A DNA stretch of 64,000 bases from an uncultured Granulicatella sp. (GTDB lineage: Bacteria; Bacillota; Bacilli; Lactobacillales; Aerococcaceae): contig NZ_CAURVV010000001.1 of the NCBI RefSeq assembly GCF_963528315.1, positions 13,464 to 77,463 of the forward strand, written 5' to 3'. The notes under the pieces were generated by a model. It was not told where the DNA came from, did no database searches, and was given only the letters and a program-made list of their open reading frames with translations. Position 1 is the first letter of the stretch, and the number at the start of each line of letters is the position of its first letter. Of this stretch, positions 2,174 to 63,821 are shown one piece after another. A program made the position numbers and the translations under genes.

Positions 2174-4787
2174 AAAGAAAGTAGTTTACTTAACGAGTTT
2201 TTTCCTACCAATTGGTATTATGCTTGTTTCGTGGATTATTAATGGATTCTTCCCATTTGGTGCAAAATCACTAATGGCAGTAGATTTTAATGCGCAATAT
2301 ATTGGTTTATATGCTTATTTGAAACATTTCTTCTTAAATGGGGATTGGAATAGCTTTTTCTATTCCTTTTCAAAATCCATTGGAGGAGGAATGCTGGGTA
2401 TTTGGGGATTTAATTTAATTAGTCCGTTTAATGTATTGTATTTCTTCTTTTCAGAACAAAATTTTCAATGGGCAGTTATGTTAACCATTGGTCTTCGATA
2501 TGGAGTAATGGGGCTTACTTGGACACATTTTTTTGTGAAGCGATATAATGGTTTAGAAAAAAATCCAGCATTTCTTCCTATGTTTGGAAGTTTATATGCT
2601 TTGAATGGATTTAATGTTAGTTATCAAATGAATCCTATTTTTTATGATGGGATGATTATGTTACCACTTGTACTAATGGGTGTAGAAGAAGTTTTGGATA
2701 GAATAGGTGCCAAACGCTATGTCCTATTGTTAGCTTTAGCTTTATTACTGCATTTTTACATGGGATATATGATTTGTATTTTTGTAGTTATCTATGCATT
2801 GTTTTATTTATTCAAATCAAAAGATAGAACGTTTAAACAAGGGTTTATTCAATTGCTTCAACTAGGCTTATATTCTATTTTAGCAGTTGGTTTAGTAGCC
2901 TTTATTATTATTCCAATTTTGATGAGCTTAGTTTCTACTAAAGGTGGACTTGAAAGTAAATTATTATTTGAATGGAAATTACAAATTGATCCTTTTGATA
3001 TTTTTTCTAAATTATTTTTAGGAGCATTTGATAATTCTTCTTGGCCAGCAGGTCCAAATTTACCGAATATTTATGTGGGAACACTAGGAATGATCGGAAC
3101 AGTTTATTATTTCTTAAGTTCTAACATTCAAAAAAGAGAAAAAATAGCCTCTTTAGGTGTCTTAATTGTTTTTATTCTATCTTGTGTTCATGAATTTACA
3201 AGTAAATTATGGCATATGGGACAAAATCCTGCAGGTTTCTTCTATCGATTTTCTTGGATTATGGCATTTTTCTTAGTTTATTTAGCTTATTTATCCTTAA
3301 GAGAAGTCGAGCAATTAAATTGGAAAAAATCATTAATAGTTGCTGGAGTCATGATTTTAATTTTCATTTTAGTGATGACAAGACAGTATTCCTTCTTAAT
3401 TGTTCCACAAAAAATTGCGACATTGGCATTGATTTTTGTGATGTTATCTATTTTAGTGTGGCCACAAATTCATAAAAGATGGGCCTTTTTGGCAGCAGTA
3501 ACTGCAATTGAATTAATGATGAATGCAACGATTGTTCAATCGAGAGTAGGGTATACGGATGCGTATAAATATCAAGATGCTGTAAAACAATTACAAACAG
3601 CAGTAGCTCCAATTCGCCCAAATGATAAAGAATTTTATCGTATTCATGGAAGCTTCCATTTAAGTAAAAATGATCCATTTATGGCGGATTATCCTGGAAT
3701 GTCTGTGTTTAGTTCTAATTTGGAAAATTCAACAAGAGATTTATTTGAACAATTAGGAAATAACGGGATTAATGCGACCACTTATTATTATGGAACACCA
3801 TTAAGTGATGCATTATTCAGTTTAAAATATTGGATGACGCCTAAACCGGTCTATACGAAGGATTATCCAGATACAAGTAAAATGTATGTGTTTGGAAAAT
3901 ATGCGACTCGTTTAGATATTACAGAAAATACTCCTGTAGTTTATGAAGAGGAGAGAACAGAAGTATTTCAAATTCCACAAACTCTTCCAATAGCATTTGG
4001 AGTAAATGAAAAATTAGCTTCATTAGAATTAAGAATGAATCAACCGATTCAAAACTATAATAAAATTACAGCAGCTCAATTAGGAGAAGATGTTAAATAT
4101 TTGGAGATGTTAGCAGCAAATGAAATTACAACTGATAATTTTTTAGCAATTGAAAGAGCAGAGACGTATCAAAGAATTGATTCTTCAAAACCAGCTAGCA
4201 TAACATACCGTTTTACTCCTCAAACAGATGAAGAGTATTGGGTCACTTTACCAACACGCTTCTCAAGAAATGATAAAAATAATATTAAGATGTATCTCAA
4301 TGGAGAGGAATATCACTTCTTAAATAATTATCAAGCGACTCAATTAGTGAATATTGCTTCGCAGTCCCAAGGAAAATCTATTGAATTTAAGATTGAAGTG
4401 AATACAGATGAAGAATATACTTTTACGGGTGTTAGATTAGCAAAAACTTATCGTTCAGTTGCAAATAAATTTATTCAAGAACGCCAAAATCAAGCGATTC
4501 AATTAACTCATTGGGATAACTCTCATATTCGTGGAACAGTTACGATTACAGATGATAGTACTGTTATGTTTACTTCGATTCCATACGATAAAGGTTGGAT
4601 TGTAAAAGTCGATGGAAAAGTCGTGGAAACAAGAAAAATTTGGAATAGTTTACTAGGTTTTGCGATTACGAATGGGGAACATACGATTGAATTAAGCTTT
4701 ATTCCAGAAGGATGGAAGATAGGAGTAGGGATTTCTATCGTATCATTTATTGTATTACTTGGGTTGATTTATAAGAAATGGATTTAA
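2166..4787 (+). CDS. yfhO: YfhO family membrane glycosyltransferase (teichoic acid glycosylation partner of CsbB)
   Basis: About 870 aa with many N-terminal TM segments and a large C-terminal extracytoplasmic part. The ATG at 2166 overlaps the stop of the GT2 gene (ATGAGTAA), indicating translational coupling. Confidence 0.8.
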   Translation: MSKKKVVYLTSFFLPIGIMLVSWIINGFFPFGAKSLMAVDFNAQYIGLYAYLKHFFLNGDWNSFFYSFSKSIGGGMLGIWGFNLISPFNVLYFFFSEQNFQWAVMLTIGLRYGVMGLTWTHFFVKRYNGLEKNPAFLPMFGSLYALNGFNVSYQMNPIFYDGMIMLPLVLMGVEEVLDRIGAKRYVLLLALALLLHFYMGYMICIFVVIYALFYLFKSKDRTFKQGFIQLLQLGLYSILAVGLVAFIIIPILMSLVSTKGGLESKLLFEWKLQIDPFDIFSKLFLGAFDNSSWPAGPNLPNIYVGTLGMIGTVYYFLSSNIQKREKIASLGVLIVFILSCVHEFTSKLWHMGQNPAGFFYRFSWIMAFFLVYLAYLSLREVEQLNWKKSLIVAGVMILIFILVMTRQYSFLIVPQKIATLALIFVMLSILVWPQIHKRWAFLAAVTAIELMMNATIVQSRVGYTDAYKYQDAVKQLQTAVAPIRPNDKEFYRIHGSFHLSKNDPFMADYPGMSVFSSNLENSTRDLFEQLGNNGINATTYYYGTPLSDALFSLKYWMTPKPVYTKDYPDTSKMYVFGKYATRLDITENTPVVYEEERTEVFQIPQTLPIAFGVNEKLASLELRMNQPIQNYNKITAAQLGEDVKYLEMLAANEITTDNFLAIERAETYQRIDSSKPASITYRFTPQTDEEYWVTLPTRFSRNDKNNIKMYLNGEEYHFLNNYQATQLVNIASQSQGKSIEFKIEVNTDEEYTFTGVRLAKTYRSVANKFIQERQNQAIQLTHWDNSHIRGTVTITDDSTVMFTSIPYDKGWIVKVDGKVVETRKIWNSLLGFAITNGEHTIELSFIPEGWKIGVGISIVSFIVLLGLIYKKWI

Positions 4788-23838: not shown

Positions 23839-23921
23839 TGCGGCCGGCGGGACTTGAACCCGCACAGGTATACACCCACTGCCCCCTCAAGACAGCGCGT
23901 CTGCCATTCCGCCACGACCGC
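23839..23921 (-). tRNA. tRNA-Leu (anticodon GAG), type II with long variable arm; CCA not encoded
   Basis: Reverse complement is GCGGTCGTGGCGGAATGGCAGACGCGCTGTCTTGAGGGGGCAGTGGGTGTATACCTGTGCGGGTTCAAGTCCCGCCGGCCGCA. The acceptor stem pairs, the anticodon loop is TTGAGGG and the T-arm is GGTTCAAGTCC. Confidence 0.9.
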
Positions 23922-49914: not shown

Positions 49915-50050
49915 GGAGTTGAGAAAACAAGCAGAAGCATCCCGCTTCTCGCCTAAGTTGACTGAAGTCCTTGGGCCGATAGTAATGTTTATTTAATGAA
50001 GACATTGGCAGCGGGGATATTTTGTTCTCGTTGCTTTTTTGCTTTTTTCT
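49915..50050 (+). promoter_or_regulatory. L20 leader (ribosomal protein autoregulatory leader) with attenuator terminator
   Basis: Structured GC-enriched leader between the promoter and infC. A gcagcg...cgttgc hairpin followed by TTTTTTGCTTTTTT lies at 50008-50050. The position matches the Firmicutes L20 leader. Confidence 0.6.
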
Positions 50051-52616: not shown

Positions 52617-53057
52617 ATGACTTTTGAAGATAAATTTATGGAAGTTCAAATTGGCATGATTTCGTTAGCAATGGAATATGTCCAAAATCAAGCAGAAAAA
52701 GTATATATTTATGCAATAGCAGACAGTTTGTATAGTTTTAAGCCATTTTATAAAATTAATGGTATTGTAATTGGAATGGAAGAAGTTAATGAAGTTGTGA
52801 CAAAAAAAGTAGATGATTCTGATAATATGGCATTTTCTTTATTGAAATATGGAACTGAAGATATGCAGAAATTGCAGGAGGTTTGCCAAGAATATAATCG
52901 TGAACATCCGACTGAGATGTGGTTGATTTATGATGCACAGAAAAATACCCTTAATAGTCGCTATAGCTATGAAGGGCGTTATGAGAAGGATGAAGAATTG
53001 CTTCCACGTTTAGAGTTTGAAAAATGGTTTGAGGAAGTAAAAAGTAAGGAACTGTAG
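52617..53057 (+). CDS. Putative polymorphic-toxin immunity protein, family A copy 1 (possibly remote YezG/DUF600-like)
   Basis: 146 aa, acidic, with no signal peptide. It is near-identical to 56828..57271, and a third 3' fragment lies at 63706. Confidence 0.45.
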   Translation: MTFEDKFMEVQIGMISLAMEYVQNQAEKVYIYAIADSLYSFKPFYKINGIVIGMEEVNEVVTKKVDDSDNMAFSLLKYGTEDMQKLQEVCQEYNREHPTEMWLIYDAQKNTLNSRYSYEGRYEKDEELLPRLEFEKWFEEVKSKEL

Positions 53058-53068
53058 GAGAATAAGAT

Positions 53069-53542
53069 ATGTACCAACAAAATCAATCAATTATCTATCC
53101 CTTGCTAACTGATGCGCTCTTATTGGAAAGAGAAGTAGTGTGGAGAGTTAAACTGCCTGATGATTATAAGGAATTTATAAAGAAAGAGAATGGAGTCATT
53201 CCCTCAAAAAGGTATTTTCATTTTGAGCATAATGAGAAAGTAATTGATCGTTTTTTAGCTATACTAGCTATTTCAGGAGAGAAGACAGAAGAGGATTACG
53301 ATATAGGAGTTGTGAGTACGCAATTGGAAGGTCGTATTGTATTTGATGAAGATAATGTTGGAATGCAACTAATCCCTATAGCTGCATTATTTGGTGGTGA
53401 TTTTGTTTGTCTAAATTATGTCGAGGATTCCGAAAATCCAAGCATTTGTATCTGGTATCATGAAGAGTCCTATGAGCTGGAGCCTGCTATAGAGTTTTTA
53501 GCTAACAACTTCACAGAGTTTTTAGCAATGCTACAGGATTAG
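53069..53542 (+). CDS. SMI1/KNR4 (SUKH-1) family immunity protein
   Basis: LPDDYKEFIKKENG...IPIAALFGGDFVCLNY...FTEFLAML pattern is typical of the SUKH superfamily. Confidence 0.75.
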   Translation: MYQQNQSIIYPLLTDALLLEREVVWRVKLPDDYKEFIKKENGVIPSKRYFHFEHNEKVIDRFLAILAISGEKTEEDYDIGVVSTQLEGRIVFDEDNVGMQLIPIAALFGGDFVCLNYVEDSENPSICIWYHEESYELEPAIEFLANNFTEFLAMLQD

Positions 53543-53630
53543 CTATATTATGGATATTAATTTAACGCGAAGCAAATAAACGATTAAATGACTGCTTAAC
53601 GTAGGAATTCTCAGATGAAAGGATGATACA

Positions 53631-53966
53631 ATGGTAGAATATGAAAAACATAATTTAATAGTAAATAGTAAAGTTATAAAATGTTTTGAATTTGAAATCC
53701 GAAATGTAATTGAACATGGTGATGAATTTATTGTTTTATTGGAGATTCCTTTTGATAATGAGAGTGAAAAGAATAACATTTTAAGGATTGATGCGAGTGG
53801 AAATGTAGTTTGGGAGATAAATAATAGTGGATACAGTAATAATAGTTATCCCTTTGAACAGATGACTTTGGGAGATGGCTGGCTTTATGCAACTGATTTT
53901 TATGCCAGAAGGTTAAAAGTTGATATAAAAACGGGAAAAATAGTTGATATGGCTATATCAAAATAA
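53631..53966 (+). CDS. Hypothetical small protein (candidate immunity protein)
   Basis: 111 aa with RBS AAAGGATG. I recognise no family. Context only. Confidence 0.35.
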   Translation: MVEYEKHNLIVNSKVIKCFEFEIRNVIEHGDEFIVLLEIPFDNESEKNNILRIDASGNVVWEINNSGYSNNSYPFEQMTLGDGWLYATDFYARRLKVDIKTGKIVDMAISK

Positions 53967-54007
53967 TAGAAGTTTGAGAATTTCAGAAATATGTGGAGGG
54001 CTTATAA

Positions 54008-54409
54008 ATGAGCGAAGCTTACTTGCCTACAAGAGATAGTTTGGGTTATCAGAATGTCAAACAAGCTTTAGAGAAAATTTTTTCGATTGATCTTGATACG
54101 ATTAAGATTAATGGAGGAGATGATGAAAATTTTAATTTTCCGTTCATGTATAATGGTTATCATATGACAATAGGTATTTCATCAACCGGTAAAAATACGC
54201 AATTGGAAGCAGGAAAGGGTGGCTTATTTAACATTTGGTTCGCTCAAACGGATGAACAGAGATTTTCAATCAATTTTTTATCCAAGGTTATTGATGATAA
54301 GAGTATAAGAAGAGTGTATGGCTGTGATGAAGAATCAGTCGAACGGACTTTGAATATATTGAAAGACTTTCTAAATTCAGATAAAGCGGAAGTTCTATTG
54401 AAGAATTGA
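54008..54409 (+). CDS. Hypothetical small protein (candidate immunity protein)
   Basis: 133 aa with RBS GGAGGG. I recognise no family. Context only. Confidence 0.35.
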   Translation: MSEAYLPTRDSLGYQNVKQALEKIFSIDLDTIKINGGDDENFNFPFMYNGYHMTIGISSTGKNTQLEAGKGGLFNIWFAQTDEQRFSINFLSKVIDDKSIRRVYGCDEESVERTLNILKDFLNSDKAEVLLKN

Positions 54410-54621
54410 ATCTATGTCTAGATTTCATCACGGGATTTGTGAAATCGAAATTAGATCAAATAGATATTAATTTATCTCCAGAAGATTTACAGTTGAGGTC
54501 AAAAAACTTCAAAGAATTTTGAATGGTCTACAAAGTAAAGGACTACCTTTGTGTCAAAACCAAGATGCAACTCAGAAACTATAGAAACGTTTTGACAATA
54601 AATTAGATTGAGGTATTAAAA

Positions 54622-54763
54622 ATGGATGTAACAAAATTAAATAAACTATCCTATATTTATATTCTGAAAGCAATGCTGAAGCTGTGATCTAGTTAAGTCT
54701 ATTAATAGTGAAGATAAACTCTTTATCTTGCTTGATAATTATAACTGGGATAAAGGTTTTGAA
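54622..54763 (+). pseudogene. Frameshifted 5' fragment of a DUF4274-like gene
   Basis: Aligns at nucleotide level with the first ~140 nt of the intact 63234 ORF and its upstream ~60 nt. It has a 1-nt deletion and an in-frame stop, and is cut off at 54763. Confidence 0.65.
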
Positions 54764-54922
54764 GGAAGAATCAAAGATTTCTTTAAAGCTGGTGATACTG
54801 GATTAGGTAATACTTGGTATCATCATTAAGATGGTAAGACTCTTCAAGAGGTGGATAGTGCTATTTATAGACGTTTTACTCATAGAGGTGGCATCTCAAT
54901 TCTGAATTTAGGAGGTAAATAA
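54764..54922 (+). pseudogene. Remnant of an HNH/EndoVII-fold (WHH/AHH-type) nuclease toxin C-terminal domain
   Basis: Translates GRIKDFFKAGDTGLGNTWYHH*DGKTLQEVDSAIYRRFTHRGGISILNLGGK*. There is an in-frame TAA at 54827 and no start codon or N-terminal region. The stop lies 1 nt before the SUKH ATG. Confidence 0.6.
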
Positions 54923-54923
54923 A

Positions 54924-55379
54924 ATGGTATTAACTATAGACTCATTTGGTCATGCGGAAGAAGAAGATATCAAACTTTTAGAAAAACGATTTGATATCAA
55001 ACTTCCAGTGGACTACAAAGAATTTTTAGTTACACAAAATGGAGGAAGGAATTTATCCTATAAATTTGAAAATTCAATAAAGATCAATCAAATAGATGAA
55101 GTTATCAATATTGATACTATGTTTGGTATAAATACGGGAATTAAAAATGCTGATATAGAGCAGTGGACAGAAGAATATCGGAATGATATTTTTGAACATT
55201 CCATTATTATTGGTGACACTATTCAGCACGGATTTCTAATATTTTGGCAAAGTGATGATGAGAATGAAGGCCTATATTATTACGACGATACGTATCAATT
55301 AGAAGCCTCAAATGATGAAAATAACGCCTATTTTTTAGCTAAGACATTTTCAGAATTTATGGATTTAATACAGAACTAA
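54924..55379 (+). CDS. SMI1/KNR4 (SUKH-1) family immunity protein
   Basis: IKLLEKRFDIKLPVDYKEFLVTQNGG...FSEFMDLI. Confidence 0.75.
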   Translation: MVLTIDSFGHAEEEDIKLLEKRFDIKLPVDYKEFLVTQNGGRNLSYKFENSIKINQIDEVINIDTMFGINTGIKNADIEQWTEEYRNDIFEHSIIIGDTIQHGFLIFWQSDDENEGLYYYDDTYQLEASNDENNAYFLAKTFSEFMDLIQN

Positions 55380-55456
55380 GAGCATAATTGAGGGAATTAT
55401 CTGAATAGATGTTCCCTTAAATTTTCATTAGAATTGAAGAGGAGTTACCAACGAAA

Positions 55457-55942
55457 ATGACAGTTGAGAAGCAAATTCAAGATAAAATATATGAATTAAT
55501 AAATAATGTTAATAAGACCATTCCTGTTGATTGGGATGAAATTTATATAAATTCTGAAATGTCGGAAACTGGTGGGAATGTATATTTTTTCTTCAAATTA
55601 CCAGATAATGATAAATTATTTTATAGCTTATTAATTCCTGATGATTTTAAAGTTGAGGAGAAGACTTTTGAAAAAATGGATTATCAGAATTATGTTTTAG
55701 CAAGAGAACTATGGAATATTTTTGAAAATAATCATATTGAGGTATGGAAAAATGCAAGTTTTATTTATAAAAATAATAAACTTAGCAGACATTTTGATTA
55801 TGTTGATTGGAATGCTTCACAATTTGGACCAACTGATCGTATAAACTATTTCAGGTATAAATACATGAAAGTTGCACCAAAAGATAATATTCAAGAACAA
55901 CTTTTTCAAGAAATGGAAAAGTATCAAAGCAAATTTTTATAA
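55457..55942 (+). CDS. YezG/DUF600 family immunity protein
   Basis: IYELINNVNKTIPVDWDEIYINSEMSETGGNVYFFFK... matches the YezG-type N-terminal pattern. Confidence 0.65.
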   Translation: MTVEKQIQDKIYELINNVNKTIPVDWDEIYINSEMSETGGNVYFFFKLPDNDKLFYSLLIPDDFKVEEKTFEKMDYQNYVLARELWNIFENNHIEVWKNASFIYKNNKLSRHFDYVDWNASQFGPTDRINYFRYKYMKVAPKDNIQEQLFQEMEKYQSKFL

Positions 55943-56035
55943 AATTTTCAAGGTTAGAAAAAATTAGTCATATTTATTAAGTTTTTTTCAAAAGTAATCG
56001 ATTTAAAATTAATATACAGATACTGGTATAATTGA

Positions 56036-56236
56036 GAAATAAGTTCCTGGAAAGTATTTGAATCAGTAAAGAAAAGAGATTACAAAACTTCGGAAATAAG
56101 GGAAGCTCACTTGGATGAATTAAATGATATGGAAACAATGCAATTAGTTCCATCTGTTGTTAATAGTAAATTTGAACATCTAGGTGGGATAGCTGAAGTT
56201 AAAAAAACTATTTGTTTTATAGAAAGAAAGGTTTAA
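56036..56236 (+). pseudogene. Remnant of a second HNH/EndoVII-fold toxin C-terminal domain
   Basis: The open frame has no start: EISSWKVFESVKKRDYKTSEIREAHLDELNDMETMQLVPSVVNSKFEHLGGIAEVKK... It shares the xH(H/L)...T(L/M)Q(E/L)V...H(R/L)GG pattern with the 54764 remnant. The stop lies 7 nt before the next ATG. Confidence 0.55.
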
Positions 56237-56243
56237 AAAAACA

Positions 56244-56723
56244 ATGCAAATAAATCATAAAACTTTTGGTAAAATAAAATTCAATTACGGTTGGACAAAA
56301 GATATTTCTCTAGATATTTTCAATAAGCACCATATTTTGGAAATCAATATTGATGCGGATGAAGATGCTGAATTTGAAACTAATCAGGAAAAAGCTTATA
56401 GATTTTTCAATAATCACTTAGATGAAATAGTAAAAGAGGCAGATTCGGCAATTATATCATATTACAATCGTGAAATATCAGATATTGTTTCAAGTTACAC
56501 GAATAATAACGAAAAGAAATATTTTTTAGATATCATTGGAGATAAAGATAAAATTTATTCTTTGTTGCAACCTAAACAAATCATGTTTCCTTTAACATTT
56601 GATGAAAATATTGAAGAGTTTGGTTTTTTATGTGAGTGTGATTGGGATAAAGAAAATGGCATAGGAATAAAATTTGTTAATGGCGAATTGTCTGAAATTG
56701 GTTATCAGGATATACTCCTATAA
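56244..56723 (+). CDS. Putative cognate immunity protein (unassigned family)
   Basis: 159 aa and acidic, immediately downstream of the toxin remnant. Confidence 0.45.
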   Translation: MQINHKTFGKIKFNYGWTKDISLDIFNKHHILEINIDADEDAEFETNQEKAYRFFNNHLDEIVKEADSAIISYYNREISDIVSSYTNNNEKKYFLDIIGDKDKIYSLLQPKQIMFPLTFDENIEEFGFLCECDWDKENGIGIKFVNGELSEIGYQDILL

Positions 56724-56827
56724 GTATATATTTTCTTATAATTATTTGTAGTTTTGAAGTTAATTATAAGATTGATGGTGAACCAAAATCTGAAATAATA
56801 AAAAGTATAAATAGAAGGAGACGAAAG

Positions 56828-57271
56828 ATGAATAAATTCGAAGATAAATTTATGGAAGTTCAAGTTGGCATGATTTCGTTAGCAATGGAGTATGTCCAAA
56901 ATCAAGCAGAAAAAGTATATATCTATGCGATAGCGGACAGTTTGTATAGTTTTAAGCCATTTTATAAAATTAATGGTATTGTAATTGGAATGGAAGAAGT
57001 TAATGAAGTTGTGACAAAAAAAGTAGATGATTCTGATAATATGGCATTTTCTTTATTGAAATATGGAACTGAAGATATGCAGAAATTGCAGGAGGTTTGC
57101 CAAGAATATAATCGTGAACATCCGACTGAGATGTGGTTGATTTATGATGCACAGAAAAATACCCTTAATAGTCGCTATAGCTATGAAGGGCGTTATGAGA
57201 AGGATGAAGAATTGCTTCCACGTTTAGAGTTTGAAAAATGGTTTGAGGAAGTAAAAAGTGAGGAACTGTAG
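56828..57271 (+). CDS. Putative immunity protein, family A copy 2
   Basis: Differs from 52617..53057 by only a few substitutions outside the first 4 codons. Confidence 0.45.
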   Translation: MNKFEDKFMEVQVGMISLAMEYVQNQAEKVYIYAIADSLYSFKPFYKINGIVIGMEEVNEVVTKKVDDSDNMAFSLLKYGTEDMQKLQEVCQEYNREHPTEMWLIYDAQKNTLNSRYSYEGRYEKDEELLPRLEFEKWFEEVKSEEL

Positions 57272-57282
57272 GAGAATAAGAT

Positions 57283-57756
57283 ATGTATAAACAAGATCAA
57301 TCAATTATTTATCCTTTGCCAACTGATGCGCTATTATAGGAAAGAGAAGTGGCGTGGAGAGTTAAACTGCCTGATGATTATAAGGAATTTATAAAGAGAA
57401 AAAATGGTTTTTGCCCTTCTAAAAATTTATTTTCTTTAACAAATAGGTCCTTTTTGATTGAGCGATTCTTGAGTATATTAGAAAACACAAAAGACAAACC
57501 ACTTGGCATGTATGACATTGATGTTGTAATGTCCGAACTGGATGAAAGATTGTTTGTCCATGAAGATATTTTGGGATTTGAGTTGATTCCCATAGTAGCA
57601 TTGTATGGTGGAGATTTTCTTTGTCTAAACTATTTGGAGGATACTGAAAATCCGAGTATTTGTATTTGGTATCACGAAGAGTCCTACGAGTTAGAGCCAG
57701 CTATAGAGTTAGTAGCTATTAACTTTACAGAGTTTTTAGTTATGCTACAGGATTAG
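57283..57756 (+). pseudogene. SUKH family gene disrupted by a nonsense codon (mosaic paralog of 53069..53542)
   Basis: Codon 19 is TAG (57337-57339) where the paralog has TTG. The ends are near-identical to the paralog and the central ~50 codons are divergent. A GTG at 57349 could allow re-initiation. Confidence 0.7.
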
Positions 57757-57837
57757 CTATGTGTGGTGTAGTAGAATTCGTGATTGATAGAGTTCCTAAG
57801 ATAAATTGAGCATTAAAGAATCGAGGAGTAAATAATA

Positions 57838-58182
57838 ATGAAAGAAATACCATCAAAAAAAGATGATATGTTAGAAATTTATGAAGACAATGGTAAGTAT
57901 ATTTTAAAGTATCCGACTTTCAATATCACCTTGCCAGAGGTTTCTAAAGAAATCCCTAAAGAAGCAGTGGATAGCTATTTAGCAGGAGAACATAATGGTG
58001 AAGAATTAATTAATTATGCTAATTTCGGATTTTGGGAATCAAAAATTAGTCAAGAAGATGCTAACATACAATTTTTAAGAGATAATCCAGAATTTCTTCT
58101 TATTGATACAGATAGAAAGAGAGCCTATTTCTCCGAAAAAGAATTTGAAGAATTGTTGAAAAAAGCTCATATGGAAAGCTGA
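57838..58182 (+). CDS. Hypothetical small protein (candidate immunity protein)
   Basis: 114 aa with RBS GAGGAG. I recognise no family. Confidence 0.35.
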   Translation: MKEIPSKKDDMLEIYEDNGKYILKYPTFNITLPEVSKEIPKEAVDSYLAGEHNGEELINYANFGFWESKISQEDANIQFLRDNPEFLLIDTDRKRAYFSEKEFEELLKKAHMES

Positions 58183-58341
58183 ACTAAATGTTGTTCTGCC
58201 TAAGAAAGTTTCAGTAAGGATAGATACTGTTTTTGAAAAAGATTCTATATCAGTCAGACTAAAAATGTTTAACGTACGTTCTCAAATTGAAGGAGAGCCA
58301 CTTAGAATTAAGTAGATAAGAAATAAATCAGGGGATTAAAA

Positions 58342-58752
58342 ATGTTTGAAAATCAATTAAGTCAATTGTTTAATGATATAGCAAATAATGTAAATCGTAT
58401 TATTCCAGTAACTTGGAATGATTTATACTTTAATGTTGAGTTAAAGGAAGGGGACGGAGAAGTTTTATTTTATTTTAATACGAAAGAAAATCCTGAAAAA
58501 TATATTTTCTCACATGATATGCCAGTAATTTATGACATTCCATTTTCTGAATATATGGACACCTTTAATCAATTAATGAGCATTTCTAGAAACATTTTAG
58601 AGGTTTTAGAAGATAATAATCAACCTGAATGGTATGCAATGGTTTTAATAGTGAAATCTCGGAAACAATTAAAGGTTGAGTTTGATTATACTGATTGGTT
58701 TGCTAGTCCGTTTACCTCGAATCAAAGGCTGTCTTTTTTTAAATATAAATAG
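58342..58752 (+). CDS. YezG/DUF600-like immunity protein, C-terminally truncated by a premature TAG
   Basis: LFNDIANNVNRIIPVTWNDLYFNVELKEGDGEVLFYFN. After the TAG at 58750 the same frame continues LGEEPENNDLLQLFKEMEEYQNKS*, which aligns with the C-terminus of the 55457 paralog. Confidence 0.55.
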   Translation: MFENQLSQLFNDIANNVNRIIPVTWNDLYFNVELKEGDGEVLFYFNTKENPEKYIFSHDMPVIYDIPFSEYMDTFNQLMSISRNILEVLEDNNQPEWYAMVLIVKSRKQLKVEFDYTDWFASPFTSNQRLSFFKYK

Positions 58753-58828
58753 TTAGGAGAAGAACCTGAAAATAATGATTTACTTCAACTTTTTAAAGAA
58801 ATGGAAGAATATCAAAACAAAAGTTAAA

Positions 58829-58895
58829 CATCTTTGATGAACGCTTGAAAGACCTAGAGTATTTCCCATATGACCTTCTAGTCCAAGAAAACTAG
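58829..58895 (+). pseudogene. Orphan 3' fragment of a PoNi-like gene
   Basis: It encodes ...FDERLKDLEYFPYDLLVQEN*. The last ~67 nt are nearly identical to the 3' end of the 61836..62501 ORF. Confidence 0.65.
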
Positions 58896-58990
58896 GGGGG
58901 GATGGGGTTCTAACCAGTTTTAATTGAAAAGGGGAATATCTTCACCTATAGTAACTTTAAAATCGACCATAGCATAGGAGGCATCAGTAG

Positions 58991-59413
58991 ATGTTTGGAA
59001 AAATAAAATCAAATCCCTCTCATCAGTTCCATCCACTTACCAAGGATGAAATTAAAAACAGCGAATCAAAGTTAGGAATAATATTTCCGAAATTACTTAG
59101 AAAATTTTATTTAGAGATTGGCCATGGTTTTATTGGAAGTGAAGTAGGTAACATCAATCGAATTATGGATCCAGAGTCTGTTTTGGACTTTAGATTGAGA
59201 CAAAATGATTTTGAATTTTATCCGGATATTGAAATATATGATGAATTTGAAGAAGATAAAATGATTTTCTTTGAAGCAAATGAATCTGTCCTGATATCTA
59301 TTGGCTTCGGTTCAGATAATAGTGGAAAGATTTATTATTATGATGAAGAGATATCCAAAAATCTTGGGGAATTTTTAGAAAAATTGTTAGAGGACGATAC
59401 TTTTTATTATTAA
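58991..59413 (+). CDS. SUKH superfamily immunity protein
   Basis: LTKDEIKNSESKLGIIFPKLLRKFYLEIGHGFIG...LGEFLEKL. Confidence 0.6.
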   Translation: MFGKIKSNPSHQFHPLTKDEIKNSESKLGIIFPKLLRKFYLEIGHGFIGSEVGNINRIMDPESVLDFRLRQNDFEFYPDIEIYDEFEEDKMIFFEANESVLISIGFGSDNSGKIYYYDEEISKNLGEFLEKLLEDDTFYY

Positions 59414-59481
59414 TTTTTCTAACTTCGAAGATTTTCTAGATAAGTAGATGTGCTATTTTCAAAAAGGAATGAAGTAAGAAT

Positions 59482-59892
59482 ATGAAGTGGTTGAATTATA
59501 AAGGTAGTTCTATAGATATAATAGAAAGTGTGGAGCATAGATTACAAATTACTCTACCAGAGGATTATAAACAATTTGTTTTAAAATATGATGGTGGTTA
59601 TCCTAATCCTAATCATTTTAAGGTAGATGGGAAGGTAGAAATTTTCAATAATTTGATTAGCCTAGATGAGAATGAATACAATAATATATATGAAATTCTT
59701 GAAGATTTACAAGATAGAATCGGCGACCAACTAATTCCATTTGCAGAAGATGGGTTTGGAAATTTATTATGTTTTGATTATTCAGCTAATAAAAACATCG
59801 TCTTTTGGGATCATGAAAAGAACTATGGTGATTTTAAAGAGTTACCCCTTGTTTGTTTCAGTTTTTCTAGTCTAATTGAGAATCTTTTTTAA
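59482..59892 (+). CDS. SMI1/KNR4 (SUKH-1) family immunity protein
   Basis: IIESVEHRLQITLPEDYKQFVLKYDGG...IPFAEDGFGNLLCFDY. Confidence 0.75.
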   Translation: MKWLNYKGSSIDIIESVEHRLQITLPEDYKQFVLKYDGGYPNPNHFKVDGKVEIFNNLISLDENEYNNIYEILEDLQDRIGDQLIPFAEDGFGNLLCFDYSANKNIVFWDHEKNYGDFKELPLVCFSFSSLIENLF

Positions 59893-59951
59893 GATGTATA
59901 GTAGTAAATGACCATTGTTGAGTATATAAGTATGAAAATTGGAAGGAAATC

Positions 59952-60437
59952 GTGAGTATGAATCACCATAACGCATTATTTAAATTAGGAATAGCTACAT
60001 GGTTATCTAAGTCAATGCAGGAAAGTCAGTTTTATAACAAGATTGAAGAGCTTCTTGAAGAATGCTGGAAATGGGTAGAGAATCATGAGGTATCTGCAGA
60101 TGTCCTCTATTCCCTTCTTGATGATGGAACTGATTTCGGAGGGGCTTTAATTTATATGCAAGTGGATGAACCAAAATATGAATCAAAGTGGAACTGTATT
60201 TTTGAAGCAGGTGCTTCTATAGCATCATTAGCTTATAAGTTAGAAGGGAAAAAATATATACCTGCATTACTAGAAGAAATTGATTCAGCCCAACAAGAAG
60301 AATTCTTTAGTGAGCAATTGGAAAACATTCTTGGAAGTAAAATCCAACACCTAGATGACTTTAAAAACTATTTATTAGATGACAACGAAAAGAACAAAGA
60401 AAAGATACTAAAGAAACTATCTGATATATTAGACTAG
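59952..60437 (+). CDS. Hypothetical helical protein (possibly Imm6-like immunity protein)
   Basis: 161 aa and acidic. The assignment is tentative. The start is GTG 59952 or ATG 59958. Confidence 0.3.
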   Translation: MSMNHHNALFKLGIATWLSKSMQESQFYNKIEELLEECWKWVENHEVSADVLYSLLDDGTDFGGALIYMQVDEPKYESKWNCIFEAGASIASLAYKLEGKKYIPALLEEIDSAQQEEFFSEQLENILGSKIQHLDDFKNYLLDDNEKNKEKILKKLSDILD

Positions 60438-60467
60438 CTGTGAGATAAGAAAAAAAGGAGTGCATAC

Positions 60468-61133
60468 ATGTTAAGAGACAAACATAAAGATTATGCGTAT
60501 TTTGAAAAACGTTTGAATCGGTTACAAAAACGTTTAAGAGAAGCTGTCGAGATGACAGATGAAATTTCGGAGAAGTATTTGTTGTTCCATTATCAAGATT
60601 TGGTTTTGGATAATGAAGAACTAGTGAAACTTTCCTATTCTATAGGGGCTTCGAAAGAGGAGATTTTTCCCTATTATCAAGGTATTCTGTCTCATCTCAA
60701 AGTTATTGCTTCGCAGGGAGTCCCCTTTTATCGTGCAGTTGATGTCTTTGCCTTAGGAGTTCTTTATAGTGAGCGTAAGGAAGAGTTTCTGGATGATTTA
60801 AAGTCTATTTATGAGCAGATGGACCATACAGATGGTTTGATTGAATACTTTATGGTCTATCTATTCCATGATAAGATAGTTCCTTTCCACTCGATTTTAG
60901 AGTATCAAAATATGATTGAGGACAACTATGAGAGTGTAGCCAAGGCACAGGGGTTCTGGTATTATAGCCACTCGGATGCACCTTGGTATGGAATACATAA
61001 GTATGACAATAGAGGTTATGATGGCTACTGGAGTTTTGACACCGCCGCAACCTGTAAAATCAAAGGAATTTACGACGAACGCTTAAAAGACTTAGAGTAT
61101 TTTCCATATGATTTGTTGGTGCAAGGAGAGTAG
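60468..61133 (+). CDS. PoNi-like (DUF1911-type) immunity protein, tandem copy 1
   Basis: 221 aa. The conserved C-terminal two thirds (FALGVLYSERKEEFLDDLK...GYWSFDTAATCKIKGI) are shared with copies 2 and 3. The family call comes from remembered motif similarity. Confidence 0.5.
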   Translation: MLRDKHKDYAYFEKRLNRLQKRLREAVEMTDEISEKYLLFHYQDLVLDNEELVKLSYSIGASKEEIFPYYQGILSHLKVIASQGVPFYRAVDVFALGVLYSERKEEFLDDLKSIYEQMDHTDGLIEYFMVYLFHDKIVPFHSILEYQNMIEDNYESVAKAQGFWYYSHSDAPWYGIHKYDNRGYDGYWSFDTAATCKIKGIYDERLKDLEYFPYDLLVQGE

Positions 61134-61154
61134 GTTGAGAAAAGGAGTTAACAT

Positions 61155-61814
61155 ATGATAAGAGATAGAATCAAAACTGAAGAATACTTTCAGGAAGCAT
61201 TTGAATGGTATTCTGAAAGTTTGCGCAAGAAGTTGGAACGTTTTGATAAGGTAAAACCAGAAAATCTTTCGGATCATTTTCGATTTAGAGTTATTAATTA
61301 TGAAGATTTATTAAGAGTTGGTTACTCTCTAGGAAAGGATATTCAGGAGCTCTTTCCTTATTATCAAGGAATCCTCTCCAACTTAAAAGAGGTCGCCTCG
61401 GAAGGAGTTCCTTTTGACTTGGCGGTTGATATATTTGCCTTAGGAGTTCTTTATAGTGAGCGTAAGGAAGAGTTTCTAGATGATTTAAAGGCTATTTATG
61501 AGCAGATGGACCACACAGATGGCTTGATTGAATACTACATGGTTTATCTATTCCATGACAAGATAGTTCCTTTTCATTCGATTTTAGAGTATCAAAATAT
61601 GATTGAGGATGCTTATGAGAGTGTGGTTAAGGCACAGGGTTTCTGGTACTATAGCCACTCAGATGCTCCATGGTATAATAATCATACCAAAGATACTTAT
61701 GTGGGCTACTGGAGTTTTGACACTGCCGCAACTTGTAAGATTAAAGGTATTTTTGACGAACGCTTGAAAGACCTAGAGTATTTTCCATATGATTTGTTGG
61801 TGCAAGGAGAGTAG
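61155..61814 (+). CDS. PoNi-like immunity protein, tandem copy 2
   Basis: 219 aa. Same conserved C-terminal block and a divergent first ~70 aa. Confidence 0.5.
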   Translation: MIRDRIKTEEYFQEAFEWYSESLRKKLERFDKVKPENLSDHFRFRVINYEDLLRVGYSLGKDIQELFPYYQGILSNLKEVASEGVPFDLAVDIFALGVLYSERKEEFLDDLKAIYEQMDHTDGLIEYYMVYLFHDKIVPFHSILEYQNMIEDAYESVVKAQGFWYYSHSDAPWYNNHTKDTYVGYWSFDTAATCKIKGIFDERLKDLEYFPYDLLVQGE

Positions 61815-61835
61815 GTTGAGAAAAGGAGTTAACAT

Positions 61836-62501
61836 ATGATAAGAGATAGAATCAAAACAGAGGAATACTTCCGAGAAGACAGAGAATTGTATCTAGGTTC
61901 GCTAAATAGGAGATTAGCAAAATATGATAAAATTAAACCAGAAAATAAAAGTGTTTATTTTCGAAATCTAGTAATTGATAATGAAACTTTATTTAAAATA
62001 TGTTATTCTCTAGGGGATTCTGTTCAAACTCTTTTCCCCTATTATCAAGGGATTCTTTCTAATTTAAAGCTCATTGCCTCAGAGGGATTCCCATTTGACT
62101 TGGCAGTTAACATCTTTGCCCTGGGAGTGCTTTACAGTGAGCGCAAGGAAGAGTTTCTGGATGATTTGAAGGCTATTTATGAGCAGATGGATCACACAGA
62201 TGGATTGATTGAATACTACATGGTTTATCTATTCCATGACAAGATAGTTCCTTTTCACTCGATTCTAGAGTATCAAAATATGATAGAGGACACTTATGAG
62301 AGTGTAGCCAAAGCGCAGGGTTTCTGGTACTATAGCCACTCGGATGAACCTTGGTATAATTCTCATCAATATGAACACTGTGGTTATTATGGCTACTGGA
62401 GTTTTGACACCGCCGCAACCTGCAAAATCAAAGGAATCTACGACGAGCGCTTGAAAGACCTAGAATATTTCCCATATGACCTTCTAGTCCAAGAAAACTA
62501 A
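61836..62501 (+). CDS. PoNi-like immunity protein, tandem copy 3
   Basis: 221 aa. Same conserved C-terminal block, and the same intergenic spacer TAGGTTGAGAAAAGGAGTTAACATATG as between copies 1 and 2. Confidence 0.5.
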   Translation: MIRDRIKTEEYFREDRELYLGSLNRRLAKYDKIKPENKSVYFRNLVIDNETLFKICYSLGDSVQTLFPYYQGILSNLKLIASEGFPFDLAVNIFALGVLYSERKEEFLDDLKAIYEQMDHTDGLIEYYMVYLFHDKIVPFHSILEYQNMIEDTYESVAKAQGFWYYSHSDEPWYNSHQYEHCGYYGYWSFDTAATCKIKGIYDERLKDLEYFPYDLLVQEN

Positions 62502-62599
62502 GAAAACTGGGTTTCCACCAAGTTTTTATCGAACATGTAGTGTCCTTTTTCTTTCTACCTATCTAAATGTTTGATTTATTTATTAAAAAAGGAGTCTAT

Positions 62600-63139
62600 A
62601 TGTTAAAAGATTTTACAAGAGTGGCAACCTTGCCTCAAGAAGTAATAGAAAAGTATAAGAATCAAGTTCCAGAAGAGCTAGTTCAAATCTGGAAGGAAGA
62701 CGGTCTGGGGACCTTTTTAGATGGTTATTTGAAGGTCATTAATCCAGATGAGTATCTTGAACTGGTTCAGGAGACCTATTTCAGAGGGGACATTTCCATA
62801 CCTATTTTTGCGACAGCTTTTGGGGACATTATAACTTTGGAGAAGAAGAAATATTTGGGGATTATTAAATATAAAGATGGTACATTTGATATTTTTTTAG
62901 AAAATTTATCACATTTTATCAAGTTTCTACCTGACAAAAGTTTTACAGATGATTATTTTGACTTACCACTTTATCATGAGGCGGTAGAGAAATATGGTTT
63001 GCTTGACTATGCAGAGTGTTTTGGATTTGTGCCACTTTTGGTTTTAGGTGGCTTTAAAGACGTAAATCATCTGAATAAGGTAAAAATATATGAACATATT
63101 TTACTAATTACTCAATTAGCTGGGCCTATCGGAGATTAA
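62600..63139 (+). CDS. GAD-like / DUF1851 (Tdi1-type) immunity protein
   Basis: WKEDGLGTFLDGYLKVINPDEY...CFGFVPLLVLGG pattern. The ATG at 62600 follows AAAAAGGAG. Confidence 0.6.
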   Translation: MLKDFTRVATLPQEVIEKYKNQVPEELVQIWKEDGLGTFLDGYLKVINPDEYLELVQETYFRGDISIPIFATAFGDIITLEKKKYLGIIKYKDGTFDIFLENLSHFIKFLPDKSFTDDYFDLPLYHEAVEKYGLLDYAECFGFVPLLVLGGFKDVNHLNKVKIYEHILLITQLAGPIGD

Positions 63140-63233
63140 AAGTGGTCATATTTTTGATAATCTAATCAAAATCAAGGTGTAACTCAGGAACTATGGGAAT
63201 GTTTTTACAATAAATTAGTTTGAGGTATAAAAA

Positions 63234-63689
63234 ATGGATGAAATAAAATTGAATAAACTATCATATATTTTATATTCTGAAAGCAATGATAAAGCTGTGG
63301 AACTAGTTAAGTCTATTAATAGTGAAGATGAACTCTTTGTCTTGCTAGATAATTATAACTGGAATAATGGTTTTGAAGTGCCAGAGGCAATTATTACTCA
63401 TCCTAATTGTACTCTCTCTGTTGCCTTATTAGCTTTTCATCGAGCAGACGGTATACAATATTTACTTGAAGGAGAGGCTGTTTTTGCAAATCGTTTATCG
63501 AAATCCTGGGAAGATTTTATAAAGGAAGTTTATAATAAAATTTTGAAAAAGAAATATCCCAATGGAAGTATCTCTTTTCAGCCTGAAATAACAAAAATTC
63601 AAAAGTTCAAATTAAATAAGTTAACTCCTAATCTCGATCCGATTATTTTAGACGGAGTTTTAGGAAAAGATTTACATATTCGTCTTTAA
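63234..63689 (+). CDS. DUF4274-like protein (polymorphic-toxin immunity context)
   Basis: 151 aa. LNKLSYILYSESNDKAVELVKSINSEDELFVLLDNYNWNNGFEVP. A decayed copy lies at 54622. Confidence 0.5.
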   Translation: MDEIKLNKLSYILYSESNDKAVELVKSINSEDELFVLLDNYNWNNGFEVPEAIITHPNCTLSVALLAFHRADGIQYLLEGEAVFANRLSKSWEDFIKEVYNKILKKKYPNGSISFQPEITKIQKFKLNKLTPNLDPIILDGVLGKDLHIRL

Positions 63690-63705
63690 AAATAAGAATA
63701 ACAAT

Positions 63706-63821
63706 ATGATACTCTTGACAGTCGCTATAGCTATGAAGGGTGTTGTGATAAGAATGAAGAATTGCTTCCACGTCTAGTGTTTAAAAAATGGTTTGAGGAA
63801 GTTAAAGAAAATCAGCTATAA
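63706..63821 (+). pseudogene. Orphan 3' fragment of a family A immunity gene
   Basis: Aligns with the last ~115 nt of 52617..53057 (SRYSYEG...EELLPRL.F.KWFEEVK). The 5' part is missing. Confidence 0.6.

Follow-up and report, generated by a model that had tools for sequence, protein, structure and literature searches.

Remains of a WHH-type nuclease toxin gene in front of an intact SUKH immunity gene in a probable Granulicatella immunity array

The locus lies in an array of 19 plus-strand ORFs (52617-63689) that starts after infC-rpmI-rplT-rplM-rpsI in the window, by which is meant the whole 64-kb stretch of DNA analysed. A terminator follows rpsI at 52239-67, a promoter-like site (52533-61) precedes the first array gene, and the array is probably transcribed as one unit. 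Its genes belong to the families SUKH (five genes), YezG-like (two), DUF6985, Imm6, PoNi (three), GAD-like/Tdi1_C and DUF4274, together with a DUF7957-type gene and several genes without a family. With at least four tandem, co-directional genes of unrelated immunity families and no complete toxin gene, it has the composition of a polyimmunity locus; no T7SS gene and no complete toxin was present within the 64-kb window, and tblastn of the window with three toxins returned only the tail described below. Housekeeping and array proteins alike group in clusters in which the named members are 'uncultured Granulicatella sp.'. The G+C content is 32.8% for the window and 31.6% for the array. Rfam searches also placed an L20 leader upstream of infC (49923-50045, 59.3 bits) as well as a single minus-strand tRNA (23839-23921). 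The features considered here, with the evidence for each, are as follows.

54483..54621, plus strand: non-coding stretch homologous to the streptococcal SUKH-to-DUF4274 intergenic region (blastn).
54622..54754, plus strand: 5' fragment of a DUF4274 gene, about 45 codons (MDVTKLNKLSY...LLDNYNWD; tblastn).
54749..54764, plus strand: recombination junction, a 16-nt microhomology, GATAA[T/A]GGTTTTGAAG, common to DUF4274 and toxin genes.
54755..54922, plus strand: dead toxin 3' tail, comprising the ~57 terminal codons of a toxin of the WHH/Colicin-DNase type with an HNH/EndoVII fold (Pfam, blastn, alignment).
54911..54915, plus strand: GGAGG, ribosome-binding site of the SUKH gene, inside the last toxin codons (L-G-G-K; read from the sequence).
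54924..55379, plus strand: intact SUKH (SMI1_KNR4) immunity gene, 151 aa (Pfam, orthologues, dN/dS 0.15).
56039..56236, plus strand: second, independent WHH-type tail fossil, frameshifted (Pfam WHH, E 3.4e-7, 30.3 bits).
63234..63689, plus strand: intact DUF4274 gene, 151 aa (Pfam DUF4274, E 7e-19; tblastn and blastn matches to 54554-54764).

An earlier note on this DNA had described 54764-54922 as the tip of a decayed toxin gene, and its frame was reproduced base for base: the translation reads GRIKDFFKAGDTGLGNTWYHH, stop, DGKTLQEVDSAIYRRFTHRGGISILNLGGK, stop, and the longer translation of 54602-54925 ends in ...LVKSINSEDKLFILLDNYNWDKGFEGRIKDFFKAGDTGLGNTWYHH, stop, DGKTLQEVDSAIYRRFTHRGGISILNLGGK, stop. 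The codons of the central motif are TGG (54815-17), TAT (54818-20), CAT (54821-23) and CAT (54824-26), followed by the in-frame TAA (54827-29) that the note had placed within the catalytic motif and that replaces the Gln directly after WHH(H). The ribosome-binding site claimed for the toxin 3' end is there (GGAGGT, 54911-16), the frame closes with TAA at 54920-22, and a single base (A, 54923) separates it from the SUKH ATG at 54924; the absence of the toxin N-terminal region was likewise confirmed. The remnant had also been called fused to the SUKH gene, which is loose wording, since the two are neighbouring frames and form no fusion. Contigs of a public run labelled as RNA are identical to 54523-55076, so that the sequence, including its lesions, has been seen independently. 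These contigs span both the remnant and the SUKH gene and hint at their co-transcription, the RNA label being a guess that leaves room for DNA carry-over.

In Pfam comparisons, the read-through peptide, with the stop entered either as X or as Q, scored 28.5 bits (X; E 2.8e-6) or 31.4 bits (Q) against Colicin-DNase (PF12639, cut-off 25 bits) and 23.6 bits (X) or 27.5 bits (Q) against WHH (PF14414, cut-off 25.1 bits); the conceptual translation thus passes the Colicin-DNase threshold and sits at that for WHH, the score with X falling just under it. Coverage of both profiles is C-terminal only (positions 54-96 of 96 and 8-39 of 43, respectively). At the DNA level, blastn aligned 54749-54940 with positions 3450-3641 of a Streptococcus oralis B17021755 contig (L005), which hold the 3' end of an intact toxin gene and the start of its SUKH gene, at 91% identity over 192 nt; identity is 91-93% over 192 nt when a longer remnant in L009, a contig binned as Granulicatella, is also considered. 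With so short a peptide and a WHH score (X at the stop) just below the cut-off, a chance resemblance within AT-rich non-coding DNA might be suspected, but the DNA identity to the intact toxin end falls at the same position relative to the SUKH orthologue, the Colicin-DNase cut-off is exceeded and L009 keeps 43 further toxin residues upstream. The tblastn and blastn homology to the intact toxin and to L009 refutes a chance origin, the probability of which is negligible. The identification in the earlier note as the C-terminal tip of a WHH-type HNH/EndoVII toxin is accordingly borne out by Pfam, by the DNA identity to L005 and by the alignment of homologues. Given DNA homology to a true toxin and the same 1-nt gap to a SUKH orthologue, the tail is, as judged from sequence, a WHH/Colicin-DNase family member by descent, and is predicted to fail as a functional one.

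A search of a large protein collection with the remnant peptide recovered almost exclusively small ORFs of 69 aa and no full-length toxin, and a search with an intact tip mostly ORFs of 80-230 aa; full-size toxins came from genomic loci. A sequence search of the PDB matched the Rhs C-terminal toxins 8bd1_A (E 2.5e-4) and 8h8a_B. The AF2 model of an intact homologue, P0015 (pLDDT 85.4), places five β-strands and two short helices before the part retained in the window and ends in a strand (TWHHH), a strand and a helix, which is the β-β-α order expected of an HNH-type site. Foldseek of this model against the PDB gave no match better than E = 2, so the proposed fold draws on the profile and sequence matches and on the C-terminal β-β-α order.

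The product of 54924-55379 matched SMI1_KNR4/SUKH-1 (PF09346) over residues 11-147 with 52.7 bits (cut-off 25.4, E 8.6e-14) and SUKH_6 (PF14568) with 42.8 bits (cut-off 27, E 8.8e-11), while a PDB sequence search gave a marginal Smi1/Knr4 match only (3d5p_A, E 0.097). Scanning with this protein, one genome per species, yielded nine loci, mostly from mitis-group streptococci. Toxins with this tip that are full-length, or at least longer, were found in streptococci with a downstream gene orthologous to 54924-55379 (87-91% aa identity): an intact WHH toxin immediately precedes the SUKH orthologue both in L005 (91% aa) and in the metagenomic L016 (87% aa), where the toxin is a 153-aa WHH ORF, and identities behind intact WHH toxins range overall from 87 to 95% aa. 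The open 554-aa ORF of L005 ends ...ENGFEGRVKDFSKAGDAGLGNTWHHHQDGKTLQAVDSAIHRRFTHRGGISILKLGGR, stop, 1 nt before its SUKH orthologue (3623/3625); the ribosome-binding site and 1-nt gap reported for the window therefore match those of intact toxin-SUKH pairs, in L005 and L016 alike. The product of 54924-55379 is, on these comparisons, the predicted cognate immunity protein of the dead toxin.

The 554-aa L005 toxin carries WHH (E 1e-9), Colicin-DNase (E 6e-8) and PT-TG pre-toxin domains, and WXG100 (E 1.4e-18) and YukC/EssB (E 4.4e-81) are encoded within 8 kb of it. L016 and the S. constellatus contig L019 place a WHH toxin followed by SUKH inside T7SSb loci with EssC; in L019 the WHH toxins with their SUKH genes directly follow EssC-EsxC-WXG100, and the same trio lies directly upstream of the toxins in L018. 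Pfam detected PT-TG and no LXG domain in the L005 (554-aa), L019 (617-aa) and L018 (591-aa) toxins, a result to be read with the reservation that divergent LXG domains could escape the profile, and export of the parent toxins through the T7SS is therefore proposed from their gene neighbourhood.

An alignment of 20 intact homologues has the invariant pattern TWHHHQDGKT...H...H.GG, from which the window departs at three positions: the first dyad His is replaced by Tyr (CAT>TAT, 54818-20), the Gln by a stop (CAA>TAA, 54827-29) and a helix His by Tyr (AIY for AIH, 54866-68), so that two of the four conserved His are Tyr, besides the stop. In WHH domains the first dyad His is a metal ligand, the second directs water and the two helix His are metal ligands (PMC3113570). 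The catalytic set of the W-H-H dyad and two helix His is consequently broken, the window reading W-Y-H-H-stop and AIY. The domain is also incomplete, as only ~57 of ~140 toxin-domain residues are retained, equivalent to 498-554 of the L005 toxin (the variable tip of which spans ~415-554), and these are interrupted by the in-frame TAA.

Further damage is found among nine copies of the tail, including a second stop (TL-stop-EV), WYYY and GG>GV, a 27-nt deletion in L001 and a change of the stop to Ser in P0001; the SUKH frame is open in every copy compared. The same WYHH-stop lesions and microhomology junction occur in contigs assigned to Streptococcus and to Granulicatella at 92-98% DNA identity. 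As these lesions recur in many copies from other genomes, the decay is of old date and started outside this one. Pairwise Nei-Gojobori estimates, from a small sample of non-independent pairs, gave dN/dS of 1.45 for the tail (dN 0.065, dS 0.045) and 0.15 for SUKH (dN 0.034, dS 0.229): the tail is under relaxed constraint, whereas SUKH is under purifying selection. Together with the synteny with intact pairs, this difference supports the contention of the earlier note that the locus is a fossil toxin-immunity pair of which the immunity gene alone has been kept.

Raw divergence across nine loci was 0.060 for the tail (54749-54922) against 0.127 for SUKH third codon positions, about half, and is thus less than expected of fully neutral DNA; noise from small numbers or mosaic recombination may be responsible, as may a weak constraint on the leader of SUKH. 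It could accordingly be proposed that the tail is kept as a cis-element of SUKH beyond its ribosome-binding site (a leader, promoter or mRNA stabiliser), a proposal with which the low divergence, the ribosome-binding site inside the tail and the RNA-labelled contigs spanning tail and SUKH would agree. However, the tail holds no promoter-like site (the nearest is at 54628-54657, and such sites are no more frequent than in shuffled sequence), Rfam gave no match in the array when the entire window was scanned, and the predicted RNA fold of the tail is not distinctive (z -1.77). Moreover, in L002-L004 and L006-L008 the SUKH orthologue stands behind unrelated sequence that shares only the last ~13 nt, with the ribosome-binding site. 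We regard a wider cis-acting role as unlikely; the last ~15 nt of the tail would persist because they hold the SUKH ribosome-binding site, and the rest would be carried passively.

The 514-bp gap upstream of SUKH (54410-54923) was resolved by blastn into 54380-54443, shared with the syntenic locus L009; 54483-54764, corresponding to a SUKH-to-DUF4274 intergenic region and the 5' end of a DUF4274 gene; and 54749-54940, the toxin tail and SUKH start, which overlaps the DUF4274 segment by 16 nt. The toxin N-terminus has been lost, as the earlier note stated, but the region is not one where toxin sequence is simply missing, for it holds the DUF4274 5' end joined at the microhomology. The intergenic/DUF4274 segment, which includes the DUF4274 ribosome-binding site (GAGG, 54610-13), showed 90-91% blastn identity to positions 10496-10780 of L003, L004, L006 and L007, where the same N-part starts the gene following the SUKH orthologue, and 88.7% to 63166-63378 of the window itself. 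Used as a tblastn query, the 45-aa N-part matched positions 63234-63368, in the intact gene, at 89%, and also 54622-54657 and 54680-54751, which lie in two frames. The fragment is broken by two 1-nt deletions, after ~54655 and ~54685, and is split over three frames; in one contig variant from run X1 the G at 54685 is present again. That a DUF4274 match (E 0.05) was noise had been considered, and was rejected once tblastn found the intact gene at 63234.

At the junction, DUF4274 genes read ...TGGGATAAT GGTTTTGAAG TRCC... and the toxin ...CTTGATAAT GGTTTTGAAG GAAG..., with GATAATGGTTTTGAAG shared, and a side-by-side comparison of intact DUF4274 genes, chimeras, L005 and L009 showed that all chimeras swap partner exactly at GATAATGGTTTTGAAG. 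L009 shares synteny with the window between infC and the array and lacks the DUF4274 piece; its remnant, which extends over toxin residues 451-554 and contains one frameshift and two stops as well as the WYHH-stop seen in the window, is the older-looking state. As the sequence flanking the chimera upstream is that usually found after the SUKH gene, an origin within the cassette may be supposed, and microhomology-mediated duplication/deletion within a toxin-SUKH-DUF4274 cassette would be the simplest.

Related rearrangements were observed elsewhere. P0034 (133 aa, from a metagenome contig) joins a SUKH N-part (…LEWTQEYKEDLPENTLIIGD) to an intact-looking WHH tail (AGIGNTWHHHQDGKTLQAV…), a second, independent chimera from which it appears that joins of an immunity-gene 5' part to a toxin 3' part recur. 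In Streptococcus sp. SK643 (L001 9724-9924), the 27-nt deletion in the chimera removes WYHH-stop-DGKT, and the SUKH gene is closely followed by another decayed WHH tail, of a different kind (…KTWSYYEELSLIKLVERHIHRHIGA; L001 10543-10713).

In relatives of the window, the chimera is an open 69-aa ORF (MDVTKLNKLSYILYSESNAEAVELVKSINSEDELFVLLDNYNWDNGFEGRIKDFFKAGDTGLGNTWYHH, stop) that ends at the same stop and whose first ~45 residues are not toxin. This ORF, a DUF4274 N-terminus plus 21 toxin residues up to WYHH, could conceivably be a functional micro-protein with a genuine stop: at least 11 protein clusters, 74-93% identical, have it open up to that stop, and the dN/dS of its N-part among chimeras (0.45) resembles that of the same codons in intact DUF4274 genes (0.34), although both values derive from few, non-independent, mostly near-identical sequences and 0.45 would suit a recently dead ORF as well as a functional one. 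The two 1-nt deletions destroy the ORF in this window, however, and the deletion in L001 removes its end; the stop has become Ser in P0001, the terminal residues are altered in P0009 and P0013, and a stretch of 48 residues, out of the ~150 that make up a DUF4274 domain, would probably not fold. A micro-protein therefore seems very unlikely.

In the 301-bp gap that precedes the DUF6985 gene 56244-56723, and immediately next to that gene, lies a second toxin-tail fossil (...REAHLDELNDMETMQLVPSVVNSKFEHLGGIAEVKK...). Over 32 aa it shares 78% identity with the end (...FTWHELNDMKTMQLVPSIVNSKFGHLGG...) of a 609-aa PT-TG/Colicin-DNase toxin of S. constellatus, and the toxin residues preceding it (RKEITKLRK.GK.TW) sit in another frame. 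The DUF6985 gene that follows the 609-aa toxin is 84% identical to 56244-56723, which suggests that DUF6985 is the immunity protein for this toxin. More generally, immunity genes of the window have 69-89% protein identity to those behind the S. constellatus T7SSb locus, where each follows a toxin: Endonuclease_NS_2 is followed by a YezG-like gene, Ntox15 by GAD-like/Tdi1_C, a PT-TG toxin by DUF7957 and the 609-aa Colicin-DNase toxin by DUF6985.

Several other array genes are truncated or duplicated. The YezG-like gene 58342-58752 stops early and its frame continues as LGEEPENNDLLQLFKEMEEYQNKS, stop, to 58830, matching the normal C-terminus of the family, so that it is probably a nonsense-mutated immunity gene. 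A PoNi-type 3' fragment (IFDERLKDLEYFPYDLLVQEN, stop) lies at ~58830-58895, before the SUKH gene 58991-59413, and three intact PoNi genes at 60468-62501. At 63700-63820 there is a 3' fragment (…DSRYSYEGCCDKNEELLPRLVFKKWFEEVKENQL, stop) of a 146-aa gene family that is intact at 52617-53057 and 56828-57271. A two-gene cassette, a 146/147-aa gene without known family plus SUKH, is present twice (52617-53542 and 56828-57756), and in the second copy the SUKH gene is truncated at its 5' end and starts with GTG (135 aa, compared with 157 aa). Contigs assigned to Granulicatella and to several Streptococcus species (L001-L019) have array cassettes with 80-98% DNA identity to one another, but their order and neighbourhood differ, the chimera-SUKH-YezG unit following three different upstream genes; this combination of high identity and shuffled order points to cassette exchange between genera.

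One further possibility is that the tail is a live orphan cassette, a reserve tip that could be recombined onto a full-length toxin gene in the manner of Rhs/CDI orphans or LXG fragments. LXG toxin fragments downstream of T7SSb loci are known and their reconstitution by recombination has been proposed (PMC13492133), and streptococcal arrays hold longer orphan toxin ORFs with a shared pre-toxin region (L005 4155-5192 and 1959-3623). The tail in the window, however, has no pre-toxin homology (the PT-TG / ...VDDVLEAG region), its upstream neighbour being the DUF4274 fragment; ~83 of the ~140 toxin-domain residues are missing, a stop and two His>Tyr changes fall at invariant positions, and the 64-kb window has no full-length toxin gene. 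A live cassette is thus highly improbable. The best explanation, to which we assign a probability of about 0.9, is that the stretch is the pseudogene scar of a WHH nuclease toxin and that SUKH alone has been kept by selection.

Under this explanation, the parent toxin would be one whose gene lies next to type VIIb secretion genes in oral streptococci, and the SUKH protein, the gene of which starts 1 nt further downstream, would neutralise it. The toxin-immunity pair would have entered the polyimmunity array as a unit, after which the toxin was presumably inactivated, the first His of the WHH dyad changing to Tyr and the following Gln to a stop, and then truncated. The leftover tail would next have been joined, at the 16-nt microhomology, to the 5' end of the neighbouring DUF4274 gene, and this 5' piece would finally have taken its two frameshifts in this genome. 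The SUKH protein presumably protects its host, probably a Granulicatella, when neighbouring streptococci deliver this toxin.

The finding on its own changes little, since toxin fragments beside orphan immunity genes are to be expected in polymorphic-toxin and T7SSb loci. The scars would nevertheless assign cognate toxins to two immunity genes, a WHH nuclease to SUKH 54924-55379 and a WHE-variant Colicin-DNase toxin to DUF6985 56244-56723, and indicate that the immunity cassettes were acquired together with toxins and not alone. The shared lesions could serve as a marker for tracing the spread of immunity cassettes between oral streptococci and Granulicatella, and the microhomology join of an immunity-type gene to a toxin tail offers a small, clean example of illegitimate recombination shaping such arrays. 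We put forward tentatively, at somewhat less than even odds, that the array is an acquired, immunity-only defence island of Granulicatella against T7SSb toxins of the oral streptococci in its neighbourhood, and a Gram-positive counterpart of the acquired interbacterial defence islands of Bacteroidales. If this is true, the two scars would record capture as toxin-immunity pairs, destruction of the toxins and then transfer of dead tail plus immunity gene between genera.

The locus can be compared with several known systems. It shares with the WHH/SUKH polymorphic toxin pairs of Zhang, Iyer & Aravind (2011, PMC3113570) the domain family, the immunity superfamily, the toxin-then-immunity order with tight coupling, and an active site made up of an HH dyad and two helix His; unlike those pairs, the toxin of the window is a non-functional C-terminal third and the immunity gene alone is intact. 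As in the heterogeneous polyimmunity loci of Zhang et al. (2012, PMC3482391), unrelated immunity genes run in one direction without a full toxin, and the content of the array differs between related genomes. Such loci usually lack toxin genes or cassettes (PMC3482391), whereas two toxin-tail scars are still recognisable in the array of the window and reveal the way in which two of its cassettes came in.

The incomplete LXG/T7SSb modules of streptococci, staphylococci and Listeria (PMC13492133; Garrett et al. 2022, PMC9484751) likewise consist of toxin fragments followed by immunity genes, with recombination among paralogous cassettes. In contrast to these, the array in the window follows rplM-rpsI, with no T7SS genes within 64 kb and apparently in another genus, its toxin fragment is far shorter than those described, and that fragment is joined to an unrelated gene through microhomology and not by homologous exchange between paralogues. 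In the orphan cdiA-CT/cdiI and rhs-CT/rhsI modules (Koskiniemi et al. 2014, as cited in PMC13492133) a tip and its cognate immunity gene are likewise displaced; as that citing account presents them, those orphans keep an intact tip and the upstream homology that allows re-activation, and the remnant in the window has neither. WHH toxins paired with SUKH proteins, polyimmunity loci, and toxin fragments next to strings of T7SSb immunity genes have thus been described before, and the locus is a further, well-resolved instance. Beyond the earlier note, the present analysis adds the junction at which the chimera was formed, the additional lesions in the catalytic site, how old and widespread the lesions are, and a second fossil.
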